Source: Candidatus Harrisonbacteria bacterium | Lineage (GTDB): Bacteria > Patescibacteriota > Minisyncoccia > UBA6257 > UBA11618 | DNA length: 64,000 nt | Direction of reading: 5' to 3' | Assembly (NCBI GenBank): GCA_023244855.1 | Contig: JAHFLO010000002.1 | Location: 8,017-72,016 of the forward strand | Shown: piece after piece, positions 2,058 to 51,008 of the stretch | Layout: the number at the start of each line of letters is the position of its first letter | Position numbering within the stretch: position 1 is the stretch's first letter | The notes under the pieces: generated by a model | Told to the model about the DNA's origin: nothing | Databases searched by the model: none | Seen by the model: the letters and a program-made list of their open reading frames with translations, nothing else | Position numbers and translations under genes: made by a program

Positions 2058-3758
2058 ATGAAAAAAGACCTCGCAGACATCATCGCCCCGCCGGAAATCA
2101 CGATAGCGCCAGACCACATGAAGGTGGGGAAAAAGTTCGCCCGCACGGTTTTCGTTTCCAACTACCCGCGCTACCTTTCGACCGGATGGCTCAGCCCCAT
2201 CGTTAACGCGCCTGAGCTTATGGACGTGAGCATCTTCATGCATCCGGCCGATACCGCAGACACGTTAAAAAAACTCAAGCGGAAGACGGCACAGATCGAA
2301 GCGCAGCTCATGGACCAAGAAGAGAAGGGATTAGTGCGGAACCCGCTACTCGAAACCGCGTACCAAGACGTGGAGGGTCTGCGCGATTCGCTCCAGCAGG
2401 CGCGCGAACGCCTCTTTATGGTCGGTCTCTATATAACGTTCTACGCCGACACCTTAAAAGATCTAGAAATACTCGAAGGCCGCATCGTGAATATGCTCGA
2501 AACGCGACTAGTATACGCAAAGCAAGCGACATTCGAGCAAATGGAAGGATGGAACTCAACGCTCCCCATAGCCGCAGACCGGCTCGCAGTGCACACACCC
2601 ATGAATTCCGGACCCGCTTCATCACTCTTCCCGTTTGTCTCGACCGACCTTACGGGCGACACGGGAATACTCTACGGCGTAAACCGCACCGATAACACGC
2701 TCGTGATATTCGACCGCTTCAGCCTTGAAAACGCCAACATGGTTATCTTCTCCAAGTCCGGTGGCGGTAAATCGTACGCCGCGAAACTCGAGGCACTCCG
2801 GCTCATGATGACAGGGGTCGACGTGATAATCATCGACCCCGAGCACGAATACAAAGCCCTTGCCGAGTCCGTGGGTGGTAGTTTTATAAATGTTTCACTC
2901 GCTTCAACCGAACATATTAATCCGTTCGACATACCGAATGTCCCCGAAGACGAAAGCGACGACGACGCCCTGAAGTCGCACGTCGTCACGGTAGCCGGCC
3001 TCGTAAAGATGATGGTGGGGGAGATAACGCCCGAAGAGGAAGCGATGCTTGACCGCGGTATTACGGAAACCTACGCGCTAAAAGACATCGTCCCCGGTAA
3101 AGACTTTTCCAAAAAAACCGCGCCCGTGCTCGCGGACTTGAAGACCGTCCTCGAAAGCATGGAGGGAGGTAAATCAATCGCTGAACGCCTATACCGCTTC
3201 ACGGAAGGCAGTTATTCGGGCTTCACGAATTTTTCCACAAACGTTGACCTTAGTAACCGCCTTATCGTCTTCTCCCTTCGCGACCTCGAGGAAGGCTTAC
3301 GCCCCATCGCCATGTACCTCGTGCTCAACTTCATCTGGAACGTCGTGCGTGGAAAGATAAAAAAACGCGTCATGATCGTCGACGAAGCATGGTGGCTCAT
3401 GCGCTACCCCGAAGGCGCCTTATTCCTCTTCGGGCTCGTAAAGCGCGCACGCAAATATTACTTGGGCGTAACAACTATTACGCAAGACGTAGAAGATTTC
3501 CTTCTTTCGCCCTACGGCCGCCCTATTATTACTAATTCATCGTTACAACTACTCCTTAAACAATCGCCGGCGATGATGGACGTACTCCAAAAGACGTTCA
3601 ACCTCTCGGAGGGGGAGAAGAGCCTCCTTCTTGAAACACCCGTGGGGCAAGGGCTCTTTTTCGCGGGAACGAAGCACGCCGTAATACAAGTGCTCGCCTC
3701 TTCGCCCGAAGATAAGGTAATAACCACAAACCCGAAAGATACCGTATGGAAGAAATAA
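2058..3758 (+). CDS. VirB4/TrbE/CagE-family T4SS ATPase, C-terminal ATPase part
   Basis: Walker A FSKSGGGKSYAAK, DPEHEY and Walker B MIVDEAWW motifs typical of VirB4. An in-frame ATG at 2058 lies 4 nt after the stop of the N-terminal ORF. The longer track ORF 1971-3758 is probably an upstream overextension. Confidence 0.8.
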   Translation: MKKDLADIIAPPEITIAPDHMKVGKKFARTVFVSNYPRYLSTGWLSPIVNAPELMDVSIFMHPADTADTLKKLKRKTAQIEAQLMDQEEKGLVRNPLLETAYQDVEGLRDSLQQARERLFMVGLYITFYADTLKDLEILEGRIVNMLETRLVYAKQATFEQMEGWNSTLPIAADRLAVHTPMNSGPASSLFPFVSTDLTGDTGILYGVNRTDNTLVIFDRFSLENANMVIFSKSGGGKSYAAKLEALRLMMTGVDVIIIDPEHEYKALAESVGGSFINVSLASTEHINPFDIPNVPEDESDDDALKSHVVTVAGLVKMMVGEITPEEEAMLDRGITETYALKDIVPGKDFSKKTAPVLADLKTVLESMEGGKSIAERLYRFTEGSYSGFTNFSTNVDLSNRLIVFSLRDLEEGLRPIAMYLVLNFIWNVVRGKIKKRVMIVDEAWWLMRYPEGALFLFGLVKRARKYYLGVTTITQDVEDFLLSPYGRPIITNSSLQLLLKQSPAMMDVLQKTFNLSEGEKSLLLETPVGQGLFFAGTKHAVIQVLASSPEDKVITTNPKDTVWKK

Positions 3759-4165
3759 CAGAAGCACCTAAAATAAACGGTATCGAAGGAGCCGTCATGG
3801 TCGGCGTGTGTATTCTCTTCGATGTTGCGGATTTTTTTGCCACGTTTCTCGACGCGCTGTTCGGCGCAGGGGAGCTCGTTAAGTTTTTTATCAACGCCTT
3901 CGCTTCCGTAGTACTCTGGCTGTGGGCTACTATGAAAGGAGTGGGTGCCGAACGCACGCTCGTAGGAAACCTTCTCGAATTCGTTCCGATAATAAATACG
4001 CTCCCGATACGGACGATAGCGATGCTCGCGACCATATGGCTCGACCGACACCCGAAGCAGGCGGAGCTAGCGGAAAATCTCGCACCAAAAATAAAAAATC
4101 CGAGACGTGCCATAGGTAGAAGGGCTCTTGCCGCAAAAGCCGCGAAAACAACGCAAGTCGCATGA
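3746..4165 (+). CDS. small hydrophobic membrane protein (T4SS operon member, unknown role)
   Basis: 139 aa with 2-3 predicted TM helices and a basic C-terminal tail. Start overlaps the VirB4 stop (translational coupling). Confidence 0.4.
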   Translation: MEEITEAPKINGIEGAVMVGVCILFDVADFFATFLDALFGAGELVKFFINAFASVVLWLWATMKGVGAERTLVGNLLEFVPIINTLPIRTIAMLATIWLDRHPKQAELAENLAPKIKNPRRAIGRRALAAKAAKTTQVA

Positions 4166-33685: not shown

Positions 33686-33961
33686 TTAGAGCTTTTGGAG
33701 TTCTTTAAGGTCGTGGTCGGGTGCATAGAGCAGTATGAGGCCGATTACGAAGCCAATACCCGCGGCAAGGAGGGTGTGGTCTATGCCGATCATAGTTTCT
33801 AAGATATCGAGTCCGTGCCATACGCCGCGCCACACGAGCACGAGCCCGATCACGACATTGATATTCCGTATAAAGTACGAGGGTTGCGATGTGTTTTCGG
33901 TCATAAGAATAAGTATATCATTTTGATAAAAAAGCTTGTTTAGCTCGGTAATATCGTCCAT
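33686..33961 (-). CDS. small two-TM membrane protein, divergent from smpB
   Basis: MDDITELNK… followed by two hydrophobic helices. The track ORF N-terminal extension overlaps smpB and is rejected. Confidence 0.35.
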   Translation of the reverse strand: MDDITELNKLFYQNDILILMTENTSQPSYFIRNINVVIGLVLVWRGVWHGLDILETMIGIDHTLLAAGIGFVIGLILLYAPDHDLKELQKL

Positions 33962-33970
33962 ACTTGCCGC

Positions 33971-34417
33971 ATGGAGCAGACGTCGATAACTAATCGCAAG
34001 GCGCGTTTTAATTACGAAATACTCGATTCTCGCGAGGCGGGTATCGAGCTTTTTGGCTACGAAGCTAAGTCCCTGAAGGCGAGTCATGCGGATATTACGG
34101 GCGCGCACGTTACGATCCGTGGCGGTGAAGCGTGGCTCTTAAACATGAATGTGCGGCCGTATCAGGAAAACAACGTGCCAAAAGATTACGATCCGCTTCG
34201 TCCGCGTCGCTTACTCCTAAAGAAAGAAGAAATCGCAGAACTCGAAGCGCAGGTACGCACGGCTAACTTGACAATCGTGCCAATTCGGGTTTATAGTAAG
34301 GGGCGTCTCGTGAAGATCGAAATAGGTCTCGGAAGAGGCAAGAAGAAAGCCGATAAGCGCGAGGCGATCAAAAAACGGGAGTGGTCTAGGCTTCGACGGA
34401 ACATTGAAACGAAATAA
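33971..34417 (+). CDS. smpB: SsrA-binding protein SmpB
   Basis: NRKARFNYEILD…GAHV… and a basic C-terminal tail KKREWSRLRRNIETK, canonical SmpB. Confidence 0.9.
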   Translation: MEQTSITNRKARFNYEILDSREAGIELFGYEAKSLKASHADITGAHVTIRGGEAWLLNMNVRPYQENNVPKDYDPLRPRRLLLKKEEIAELEAQVRTANLTIVPIRVYSKGRLVKIEIGLGRGKKKADKREAIKKREWSRLRRNIETK

Positions 34418-34726
34418 GCAAGCCGAGTTAGCACGCACACTCGTAAAACGGCGCGCACAAGATTAATTGCCAACGCATTTAGTCGCCAGCCTGAGCTCGC
34501 ATACGCGTAGCTTAGGGATCTCTTCCTAACTCCTGCTAGGGAATCAAGAGGTCTTATACCGCAGGATAGCGATTACGGACTGGTGACGTAAGAGCAAAAC
34601 TAAGCCAGTAAGGCGTGCGTGGTTTCTGGTATGTCTAAGCCACGCCGCATGAACCGACATACCTACGCTTGTAGAAAGTTTCGGACTGATATGCTTCGGA
34701 TCGGGGTTCGATTCCCCGCACTTCCA
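34377..34726 (+). ncRNA. ssrA: tmRNA (ssrA), about 350 nt, 5' end overlapping the 3' end of smpB
   Basis: 5' GGGAGTGGTCTAGGCTTCGACGG… matches the tmRNA 5' consensus GGGGCUGAUUCUGGAUUCGACGG. 3' end has T-arm CGGGGTTCGATTCCCCG plus acceptor CACTTCC-A, pairing with 5' GGGAGTG. Internal GCCGAG…CTCGTAAAA pseudoknot-1-like segment. Candidate tag ORF GCC AAC GCA TTT AGT CGC CAG CCT GAG CTC GCA TAC GCG TAG encodes ANAFSRQPELAYA. Confidence 0.8.
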
Positions 34727-34730
34727 CAAA

Positions 34731-34763
34731 AACAAAACATCCTCGCAAGAGGATGTTTTGTTT
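34731..34763 (+). terminator. rho-independent terminator after tmRNA
   Basis: aaaacatcctc-gcaa-gaggatgtttt followed by gttt. Confidence 0.6.
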
Positions 34764-50080: not shown

Positions 50081-50374
50081 TTAATACTCCGCAAATCCCC
50101 GTATCCGGTCAGCTTCACGTTCTACGAGCTCTCCCTCGTATTCGCCGTTATGGGCGTGGTTGCTGCCGTACGAGGGTTTTCCTTGGTCTATGTGGAGATT
50201 TACCACAAGCGCCGTTCCTTCTTTTTTGACGTAGGCGTGGTAGCGGGGATAATCGTGGCCAGAAACGCGGCGCATACAGCTTGCTTCTGCGCCTACCTCG
50301 CGGTCGAAGGCATAGCCACATTGCCGCATGAAGTCCACGGCGCTTTGCTTGAAGTTCGGTATTTTTATGGTCAT
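50081..50374 (-). CDS. hypothetical small protein (98 aa from internal Met)
   Basis: Track ORF 50081-50416 overlaps tRNA-Pro. The start is moved to MTIKIPNF. No recognisable motif (…HAYVKKEGTALVVNLHIDQGKPSYGSNHAHNGEYEG…). Confidence 0.3.
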   Translation of the reverse strand: MTIKIPNFKQSAVDFMRQCGYAFDREVGAEASCMRRVSGHDYPRYHAYVKKEGTALVVNLHIDQGKPSYGSNHAHNGEYEGELVEREADRIRGFAEY

Positions 50375-50387
50375 GGTCGGGGTGCTG

Positions 50388-50458
50388 AGAATCGAACTCA
50401 GGCTACATGCTCCCAAAGCAAGCGTACTACCATTATACTACACCCCGTTCGTTGCTTG
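50388..50458 (-). tRNA. tRNA-Pro (anticodon TGG), C1-G72 acceptor pair
   Basis: Reverse complement CGGGGTGTAGTATAATGGTAGTACGCTTGCTTTGGGAGCATGTAGCCTGAGTTCGATTCTCAGCACCCCGA. Anticodon loop TTTGGGA, T arm CTGAG-TTCGATT-CTCAG. One T.T mismatch in the anticodon stem. Confidence 0.75.
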
Positions 50459-50524
50459 ATTGTGCCCTGTAATTGTCCGTAGGGTCAAACAATGCTAGGA
50501 TTTCGCTTGTATTTATTCGCGTAT

Positions 50525-50596
50525 GCCCTTGTAGCTCAATGGATAGAGCAGGACTCTTCTAAGGTCTTGATGGGGGTTCGATTCCCTCCGGGGGCG
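50525..50596 (+). tRNA. tRNA-Arg (anticodon TCT)
   Basis: GCCCTTGTAGCTCAATGGATAGAGCAGGACTCTTCTAAGGTCTTGATGGGGGTTCGATTCCCTCCGGGGGCG. Cloverleaf verified by hand; anticodon loop CTTCTAA. Confidence 0.85.
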
Positions 50597-50603
50597 CAAA
50601 ATA

Positions 50604-50629
50604 AAACAACCGCTGTAGCGGTTATTTTA
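50604..50629. terminator. hairpin terminator after tRNA-Arg(TCT) (aaaacaaccgc-tgta-gcggttatttt)
   Basis: 6-bp stem with A-run/T-run flanks. Confidence 0.45.
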
Positions 50630-50632
50630 TTT

Positions 50633-50720
50633 TGCTCTGGGAATCGAACCCGCAGGGCGAGAGTTTTTAAGAAGGCTTTTTATAAGCCGACTATAAAAAC
50701 CGATGTTTCGACCGAGCTTG
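50633..50720 (-). pseudogene. degenerate tRNA-like remnant (T-loop GGTTCGATTCC conserved, arms decayed)
   Basis: Minus-strand sequence …GCCCTGCGGGTTCGATTCCCAGAGCA retains a T-loop, but acceptor and T stems pair only partially (5/7 and 3/5) and no clean anticodon arm could be folded. Confidence 0.25.
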
Positions 50721-50795
50721 CGAGGGAGGGGCGATCCCCTCCGGAGGCACATCAATTGAAAAATCACAATCCATCTGCCATACTCGTTTTTATAA

Positions 50796-50867
50796 GCCTA
50801 GGTAGCTCAGTGGTAGAGCGCTACCCTGAAGAGGTAGGCGTCCGGTGTTCGATTCACCGCCTAGGCA
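50796..50867 (+). tRNA. tRNA-Phe (anticodon GAA)
   Basis: GCCTAGGTAGCTCAGTGGTAGAGCGCTACCCTGAAGAGGTAGGCGTCCGGTGTTCGATTCACCGCCTAGGCA. All four arms pair; anticodon loop CTGAAGA. Confidence 0.85.
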
Positions 50868-50931
50868 CACGTATGAAAAGTAGATTTTTCATCGCAATCC
50901 TGTTATTGTGGGAGGCGTAGTTGGTTAAGAT

Positions 50932-51003
50932 GGTGCCTATAGTTTAGTGGTAAAACTCCTCTCTGTGGCAGAGGTGTCACGGGTTCGATCCCCGTTAGGC
51001 ACC
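50932..51003 (+). tRNA. tRNA-His (anticodon GTG) with genomically encoded G-1
   Basis: gGTGCCTATAGTTTAGTGGTAAAACTCCTCTCTGTGGCAGAGGTGTCACGGGTTCGATCCCCGTTAGGCACC. Extra 5' G pairs with discriminator C73, the His identity element. Confidence 0.85.
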
Positions 51004-51008
51004 CACAA

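Follow-up and report, generated by a model that had tools for sequence, protein, structure and literature searches.

SmpB and the product of ssrA, transfer-messenger RNA (tmRNA), are obligate partners in nearly all bacteria, and to our knowledge the way in which their amounts are balanced is poorly understood. Here we analyze a stretch of 64,000 nucleotides (nt) from a Candidatus Harrisonbacteria bacterium (contig JAHFLO010000002.1), the whole of which is called the window, where the 3′ end of smpB is also the 5′ end of ssrA. The closest described case is that of Carsonella ruddii, in which the smpB coding sequence (CDS) overlaps ssrA, the residues added by read-through are variable and apparently random, and the SmpB tail is lost (PMC4131195). 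The Carsonella overlap is present in only half of the strains, one of them with a decayed ssrA (Mao et al. 2009; Hudson, Lau and Williams 2014, PMC4131195), and among 2031 genomes an smpB/ssrA overlap was found nowhere else (PMC4131195). A feedback through non-stop smpB mRNA was already sketched for Carsonella by Hudson et al., with a tail-less SmpB (PMC4131195). Two further systems share parts of this arrangement: the E. coli arfA mRNA, which is made non-stop by RNase III cleavage and whose truncated product is active (cited in PMC4131195), and tRNA genes that overlap the 3′ ends of upstream CDSs, such as FtsW/RodA with tRNA-Ile in Helicobacter (Hudson et al. 2014, Table 4). In a full-text literature search no smpB/ssrA overlap was described for bacteria of the Candidate Phyla Radiation (CPR), nor was an ssrA promoter inside smpB, and on non-stop smpB nothing came up besides the Carsonella paper; given the incomplete coverage of the search, this is absence of evidence. 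The results below indicate that the 41-nt smpB/ssrA overlap of the window is real, functional and dual-coding between two trans-translation partners in a Patescibacteria (Paceibacteria/Parcubacteria-like) clade.

Results

The smpB gene of the window (33971..34417, + strand; 148 amino acids; stop TAA at 34415-34417) was taken from the list of open reading frames (ORFs). Its product matched Pfam PF01668 (SmpB) with 159.6 bits (cutoff 27) and solved SmpB chains with an E value of 2e-32 (7ljp), the SmpBs of Thermus, E. coli and Mycobacterium also being matched. ARAGORN found a single tmRNA in the window, of the standard type, at 34377..34727 (+), with the tag ANAFSRQPELAYA followed by a stop. In agreement with this call, Rfam RF00023 matched 34377..34729 with 133.5 bits (gathering score 47; E value 5e-52). 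Because this match is colinear and covers model positions 1-374 of 374 without truncation, the tmRNA is not a two-piece or permuted one. The tRNA-Ala-like acceptor stem GGGAGUG/CACUUCC forms seven of seven pairs, including the G3:U70 identity pair and the closing G1:C, and does so from a start at 34377 alone. Together, ARAGORN, RF00023 and the acceptor stem define a one-piece ssrA at 34377..34726 (+), through the discriminator A. A sequence-only reading of the window had placed the tmRNA 5′ end at 34377, inside smpB, as the only start able to pair with the acceptor strand CACTTCC, and had estimated an overlap of about 41 nt; all of this was borne out, and with smpB stopping at 34417 the overlap is exactly 41 nt. 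ARAGORN, Rfam and the ORF list ruled out three candidate alternatives: that the tmRNA is permuted, that its 5′ end lies downstream of 34417 and that smpB stops earlier.

The dual-coding overlap (34377..34417, +) corresponds on the protein side to Arg136, in part, through Lys148 and the stop (REWSRLRRNIETK and stop), and on the RNA side to tmRNA nt 1-41. The first nucleotide of the tmRNA is the second base of the Arg136 codon, and the overlap is thus composed of two bases of that codon, the 12 codons from Glu137 to Lys148 and the stop: (c)GG GAG UGG UCU AGG CUU CGA CGG AAC AUU GAA ACG AAA UAA, which is translated as R E W S R L R R N I E T K stop. As RNA, the same bases hold the 5′ strand of the acceptor stem, GGGAGUG, a linker, GGCUUCGACGG and the beginning of helix 2.

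The remaining parts of the tmRNA were those of a canonical molecule. The T-arm GGGGUUCGAUUCCCC and the 3′ strand of the acceptor stem, CACUUCC (34719-34725, pairing with 34377-34383), lie at 34703..34725 (+), and both T-arm and acceptor stem display compensatory changes and covariation among relatives. When RNAalifold was applied to the concatenated halves of the tRNA-like domain, it recovered the acceptor stem and the T-arm and did not recover helix 2a. The tag reading frame (34469..34510, +) was placed by ARAGORN, the Rfam alignment and reading of the sequence; it resumes at GCC and stops at TAG (34508-34510). The earlier prediction of the resume codon GCC at 34469 and of the tag is matched exactly by ARAGORN, and its proposal of an ssrA-like hydrophobic end also held, since the tag ORF has a GCN start, a stop and a hydrophobic C-terminus. 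Related tags of the form AN(A/T)F(N/S/D)R(Q/T)P(A/E)LA(Y/F)A are present in most clade members, and that of locus L085 is, according to ARAGORN, GNVNRTPALAYA. The 3′ CCA of tmRNA is present in the genome in some lineages and added post-transcriptionally in others. In the window it is not encoded, the discriminator A being followed by CAA, which implies a CCA-adding enzyme and does not disqualify the tmRNA; it is encoded only in L165 and partly in L002.

We then determined how far the smpB stop lies from the tmRNA 5′ end in 171 loci (cited here by L numbers), of which 80 came from GTDB species representatives, 80 from JGI metagenome contigs and 11 from exact-protein look-ups. The JGI contigs had been seeded with overlap-type SmpBs, turned out to be mostly distant relatives, with only L085 in the 41-nt class, and served as a background sample. 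The nearest of 1061 SmpB homologues all belonged to Patescibacteria/CPR (Paceibacteria, Parcubacteria, Nomurabacteria and similar). An overlap of exactly 41 nt was found in L002, L081, L082, L083/L084, L085, L165, L166 and L170/L171, which, counting the window, makes 10 distinct sequences from independent assemblies, with SmpB identities of 53-100%. ARAGORN called the 5′ end in every one of these loci and Rfam concurred in the seven that were scanned, the 5′ ends of L084 and L170/L171 being given by ARAGORN alone; the two methods also placed the same 5′ end in ten further loci, for a total of 17 related loci. Since the identical SmpB of the window occurs in three more ENA assemblies (ERZ27279977, ERZ27279942 and ERZ27296333) and the same overlap in nine other relatives, chance and misassembly are excluded. 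Relatives are also present in groundwater from Hainich and in lake samples of JGI. The tail KKREW[S/F/R/Q]R[L/I]RR[N/D/K][I/V]E[T/S][K/R] was nearly invariant in a subset of homologues that are 53-98% identical overall, the remaining homologues having tail ends of the type KKRETDREIRREFxDR; a REWxRLRRxIET tail was seen in about 32 of the best 120 SmpB clusters (90% identity).

Annotation of tmRNA in this phylum calls for some care. In about 50 loci ARAGORN found none downstream of smpB, and among these Rfam detected a tmRNA in 19 of 20 loci of one set and a co-oriented one in 14 of 20 loci of another. Of 40 re-examined loci in the range L005-L156, all empty according to ARAGORN, 33 have a full-length RF00023 tmRNA just downstream of smpB. 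In view of these Rfam hits, a negative ARAGORN call in Patescibacteria/CPR is unreliable, and such calls were not taken as absences. On the practical side, the gene-finder calls that we examined give the smpB CDS alone, and the same 33 of 40 Rfam-checked loci were missed by ARAGORN. As a side observation, in L118 the Rfam LOOT RNA (RF03000; 70.1 bits, gathering score 46.4) is found at 2640-2755 (-), just downstream of the tmRNA.

The overlapped codons carry the marks of both codes. In a comparison of eight distinct overlap-bearing genes, the mean pairwise identity at third codon positions was 0.85 in the 13 overlapped codons versus 0.39 in the 127 upstream codons, and it did not exceed 0.52 in any non-overlapping window of 13 codons. 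These values show the overlap to be constrained as RNA, with frozen synonymous sites. As for the protein, Arg was held despite the codon swaps AGG/CGG, CGA/AGA and CGG/CGA, and Thr with all four of its codons (ACG/ACA/ACC/ACT). The other substitutions were K/R, N/D/K, I/V, L/I and T/S, and the only free residue was the one after Trp (S/F/R/Q), which lies within the variable 5-nt linker of the tRNA-like domain. The smpB stop was TAA, at the same position, in every 41-nt member. Thus, the alignment also shows a constraint as protein: frame and stop position are preserved, as are Trp138 and the basic residues, and what little changes does so synonymously or conservatively. Both constraints meet in L171, where the Glu codon GAG has become GAA, a synonymous change, and the 3′ strand of the acceptor stem carries the compensating C>U (GGGAAUG/CAUUUCC), so that one event is silent in the protein and paired in the RNA. 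The gene anatomy and the dual constraint, taken alone, are held with high confidence.

In E. coli, SmpB with a truncated tail still binds tmRNA and the ribosome, yet tmRNA function is abolished; within the mRNA channel, residues 142-160 are folded as a helix, and Lys143, Arg145, Trp147 and Arg153 are required for accommodation and peptidyl transfer (PMC4151336). G123KKK, D128 K129 R130 and W138 of the window SmpB align with KGKK131, DKR137-139 and W147 of E. coli SmpB with identical spacing, and the proximal motifs GKKK and DKR are intact. Because Trp138 aligns with E. coli Trp147, the overlap coincides with the distal tail of SmpB; judged from this alignment, it encodes the equivalent of the segment from E. 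coli Arg145 to the C-terminus, that is, most of the mRNA-channel helix. The sequence-only reading had seen in these codons the functionally important tail of SmpB, a view that the alignment confirms, the function itself being known from the work cited (PMC4151336).

Two sister lineages, L001 and L167, show that the genes have been secondarily separated and provide two natural uncouplings of the overlap. Their positions were taken from a bootstrapped neighbour-joining tree of the SmpB core with Kimura distances. L001, the closest relative in GTDB, groups with the window (bootstrap 90), inside a group of window and L081 (bootstrap 100). Its SmpB is 90% identical to that of the window and its tag is the same, yet the two genes are separated by a gap of +23 nt. 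When the two DNAs were compared, the flanks were identical and the 11 nt GGAGTGGTCTA were swapped for about 67 nt, comprising a new tail end (DAKREIQRAL and stop), a spacer and a different tmRNA 5′ end, GGGGAUGACG; the 3′ strand of the acceptor stem and the T-arm are altered to match this new 5′ end. This patch looks like a recombination from another lineage that undid the overlap. In the coordinates of L001, positions 3400-3480 and 3770-3816 hold the differences, within near-identical flanks: both ends of the tRNA-like domain (acceptor strand and linker at the 5′ side, T-arm and acceptor strand at the 3′ side) and the last 10 SmpB codons.

In the tree, L085 is the partner of L167 (bootstrap 100). 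L167 carries the same tag, but a gap of +89 nt lies between its two genes. Its SmpB end, KKKEWAKLKKVVEAS, is colinear with that of L085, KKREWSRLRRKVETR, with Arg replaced by Lys, and for this reason we read it as a protein-only descendant of a tail once encoded by the tmRNA. Past the smpB stop, the spacer of L167 contains a hairpin and, 14 nt before the tmRNA, a TTGACG-17-TATACT promoter. That this tail was kept once the RNA constraint had gone is the strongest evidence here for the overlapped codons being both translated and of use.

Across the phylum, smpB and ssrA are often close. In 143 measured loci the median spacing was +43 nt, with 37 loci at 0-30 nt and 27 overlapping. Twelve loci (L033, L058, L105, L110, L112, L113, L124, L127, L138, L142, L145 and L160) share an 8-nt overlap in which SmpB ends in Arg-Gly-stop and the UGA lies at tmRNA nt 6-8 (GGGGNUGA); since this UGA is the smpB stop, RNase P cleavage would remove the stop in these loci as well. 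The other overlaps measured 1, 10, 11, 12 or 18 nt, and further short-overlap loci are L107, L109, L128, L144, L148, L065 and L137. The earlier suggestion that such an overlap is unusual has therefore to be divided: the 41-nt overlap encoding the tail is specific to the clade, whereas short overlaps are frequent in the phylum. The 8-nt and 41-nt classes have the same frame relative to the tmRNA, xGG-GNN-UGR over nt 1-8, and tmRNA nt 6-8 read UGG (Trp) in the 41-nt class and UGA in 65 of 111 tmRNAs.

How the longer overlap arose can be read, with reserve, from the relatives. Their KKRE codons are AAA AAA CGN GAR and some of them already have a GGGAGUG acceptor strand, which makes it plausible that an in-frame deletion joined the CGG-GAG of ancestral KKRE codons to the GGGAG at the tmRNA 5′ end. 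After such a deletion, the tmRNA frame would have happened to supply a Trp in the correct place, along with four Arg residues and a stop 11 codons further, giving a tail nearly as long as the one replaced. The GGGAGUG acceptor had also been considered as a unique derived mark of the clade and was dropped, as it is present in four non-overlapping loci.

Inside smpB, on the + strand at 34268..34297, we found a promoter-like element of the sigma-70 type, consisting of a -35 box TTGACA (Leu100-Thr101), an 18-nt spacer and a -10 box TATAGT (Tyr108 and the next codon). It agrees with the consensus at 11 of 12 positions, and the tmRNA 5′ end lies about 80 nt downstream of it. Its hexamers coincide with the codons of invariant residues, Leu-Thr and Tyr, in the motif GLT(I/L)VP..VY of SmpB, and the site (TTGACA, 17-18 nt, TATAnT) is kept as DNA in about 140 of 157 Patescibacteria loci (~90%). 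At this site, across the 157 loci, the codon TTG is used for Leu in 94% (21% elsewhere in smpB), ACA for Thr in 71% (24% elsewhere) and TAT for Tyr in 90% (61% elsewhere). Tyr is followed by an A-N-T codon in 142 of the 157 loci although the residue varies between N, T, S and I (Asn AAT 79, Thr ACT 43, Ser AGT 15, Ile ATT 5), and Thr at this position is ACT in 43 of 43 cases, compared with an ACT share of 31% elsewhere. With Rfam calls added for the loci missed by ARAGORN, an adjacent co-oriented tmRNA was present in 129 loci and absent from 4 when the element was there, versus 6 and 7 when it was not (Fisher p = 2e-6, a value that is not a true probability because the loci are phylogenetically related). 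The element was lost mainly where the tmRNA gene is non-adjacent or has its own promoter: in L167 it has decayed to TTAACC...TATCTC, and its sister L085 keeps TTGACA...TATAAT. These patterns of conservation make it quite probable that the internal element is the promoter of ssrA, and the TTGACA/TATAnT site in smpB is probably an ssrA promoter throughout the phylum. The pre-tmRNA predicted from it would begin with some 70-75 nt of leader.

An intrinsic terminator, a hairpin with a U-tract (34730..34763, +; -21.6 kcal/mol, z = -10.3), immediately follows the 3′ end of the tmRNA. No terminator-like site was found between smpB and ssrA in the window, and this hairpin is the only terminator of the unit; read-through from the smpB promoter into ssrA is consequently unavoidable. 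The co-transcription proposed from the sequence alone thus stands as far as this read-through is concerned and has to be qualified in another respect: as the internal element is conserved as DNA and tracks an adjacent tmRNA, much or most of the tmRNA may start inside smpB rather than derive from smpB mRNA. Upstream of smpB there is a possible -10 box, CATACT (33959..33964, +), read from the sequence 6 nt before the ATG, with no Shine-Dalgarno sequence; CATACT occurs 6-9 nt before the smpB ATG in the window, L081, L171, L001 and L082. A leaderless smpB mRNA would be a speculative reading of this spacing. The window also contains a divergent 91-amino-acid ORF (33686-33970) that has no Pfam match and starts 9 nt from the smpB ATG, and, ordinary and unrelated to the overlap, four tRNA genes within about 630 nt (50374-51004): Pro-TGG (-) and Arg-TCT, Phe-GAA and His-GTG (+).

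Discussion

The explanation that we favour combines the dual-coding overlap, an ssrA promoter inside smpB and a coupling between RNase P processing and non-stop smpB mRNA; as a whole it appears likely to us. Most pre-tmRNA would start at the internal promoter, and RNase P would remove its leader at 34376/34377. Those transcripts that start at the smpB promoter would always run through ssrA to the terminator at 34730-34763. On these, the acceptor stem has to wait for its 3′ strand, 340 nt downstream, and therefore ribosomes trailing the polymerase could finish SmpB first. Once the stem had formed, RNase P would sever the smpB message 41 nt before its stop, yielding one tmRNA and one non-stop smpB mRNA. 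The latter would give SmpB 1-135, which lacks the mRNA-channel helix; tmRNA-SmpB already present would tag this product, which would then be degraded, and the output of SmpB would thereby be limited and coupled to tmRNA maturation. Because there is no terminator between smpB and ssrA, some non-stop smpB mRNA seems unavoidable if RNase P acts. Whether this amounts to a feedback is a separate matter, and on the sequences at hand an RNase P non-stop feedback could hold or fail with equal ease. More tentatively, we put forward a bolder form of the proposal, in which the 41 nt that are both the 5′ arm of the tmRNA and the mRNA-channel helix of SmpB would make a self-limiting circuit, each smpB transcript being translatable only until its own tmRNA folds and RNase P cuts, and in which, phylum-wide, a promoter written in smpB codons would drive ssrA in a nested unit.

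The alternative that survives best is neutral compaction. According to it, genome streamlining produced the overlap as a side effect, in a lineage that already transcribed ssrA from inside smpB; there is no feedback loop, both products are made normally, and the cutting of the few full-length smpB mRNAs by RNase P is without regulatory significance. The short smpB-ssrA spacing across the phylum described above and the 1-18 nt overlaps in many lineages fit such a trend, the overlap has been lost twice with no obvious consequence, and the internal promoter would offer a route to tmRNA that does not consume smpB mRNA. Two observations are harder to accommodate: the overlap is unchanged down to 53% SmpB identity, and every transcript with the smpB start holds a complete pre-tmRNA. 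All in all, we regard neutral compaction as rather unlikely.

Several points weigh against the explanation that couples overlap, promoter and RNase P. The transcription starts, the cleavage of full-length smpB mRNA by RNase P and the tagging of truncated SmpB are all steps that we infer, and if most smpB mRNA escapes RNase P, or if its 5′ fragment is quickly degraded, the overlap may have no regulatory effect. The internal promoter rests on its match to the consensus and on comparison between loci, Patescibacteria promoters being uncharacterised here, and the kinship of these loci tempers the Fisher test. The pairing of helix 2a across coding changes was read by eye, helix 2a being the part that RNAalifold did not return. 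Finally, monophyly of the overlap-bearing loci had 0% bootstrap on the SmpB-core tree, with alternatives below 30% and all deep nodes weak; a single origin, which the tree did not recover, was assumed because the overlap is identical and the tags are related. The anatomy of the locus is solid, its regulatory consequence hypothetical.

We also considered that the overlapped codons might be a non-functional, arbitrary extension as in Carsonella, leaving SmpB effectively without a working distal tail. There is a precedent, in that read-through of Carsonella smpB into ssrA gives apparently random sequence with loss of the tail (PMC4131195), and in the window too the tail sequence is largely set by the tmRNA. 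Against this, the tail has a normal length, 25 residues past GKK as in relatives; it is basic and has its Trp exactly at the position of E. coli Trp147; the upstream motifs GKKK and DKR are intact; the substitutions in the overlap keep Arg and Thr through synonymous codons; and L167, once uncoupled, still has a tail whose homology can be recognised, EWAKLKKVVEAS, now as coding sequence only. An arbitrary extension is accordingly very improbable. An artefact, in which the true tmRNA 5′ end lies past the smpB stop or a sequencing error masks an earlier stop or a frameshift, is effectively refuted, since for the window and for 17 related loci the 5′ end comes out the same by two independent methods, the acceptor stem pairs seven of seven only from 34377 and the same arrangement recurs in independent ENA, NCBI, JGI and Logan assemblies; nothing was found in its support beyond the caution about tools that the many CPR tmRNAs missed by ARAGORN impose.

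With the dual-coding reading in place, the locus is of interest in several respects. The same bases serve a critical protein segment and a conserved tRNA-like RNA, and substitutions are visibly filtered by both codes. The clade thus offers a tractable case of protein/RNA dual coding, with two natural uncouplings and with a testable hypothesis of smpB autoregulation through non-stop mRNA generated by RNase P. Together, the overlap and the internal promoter give a picture of ultra-small CPR genomes in which the expression of a two-component machine is nested. The components themselves are ordinary, an RF00023 tmRNA and a PF01668 SmpB; the points that distinguish the arrangement functionally from the Carsonella overlap are the intact tail, the fixed extent of the overlap, its conservation in a clade and the co-adapted sequence.

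Compared with the systems described before, the locus is nearest to that of Carsonella. In both, smpB runs into the tmRNA on the same strand, and 5′ maturation should leave a non-stop smpB mRNA that is a substrate of its own product. In contrast to Carsonella, the members of the diverse clade to which the window belongs all share a fixed extent of 41 nt, the tail encoded there is conserved and of full length, with the equivalent of Trp147, the tmRNA of the window is intact and canonical, and the overlap is under dual constraint rather than degenerate. The sole overlap described so far, that of Carsonella, belongs to a decaying system, and the window clade shows that a stable and functional one is possible. 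The short overlaps of other Patescibacteria have the same gene order, strand and frame, with ssrA apparently driven from a promoter inside smpB; in their 8-nt class, however, only Arg-Gly-stop is shared and the entire functional tail is encoded upstream of the tmRNA, whereas the window clade has UGG (Trp) in place of UGA and reads 11 codons further. Like arfA, smpB would be the gene of a rescue factor whose mRNA is made non-stop by an endonuclease and whose product is under the control of tmRNA-SmpB; unlike the arfA product, SmpB would lose its activity on truncation, RNase P would take the place of RNase III, and the smpB case is a prediction from sequence. With the overlaps between tRNA genes and CDSs it has in common a coding 3′ end that is shared with the gene of a structured RNA processed by RNase P, but the partners there are unrelated, while SmpB and tmRNA are obligate partners of one complex.

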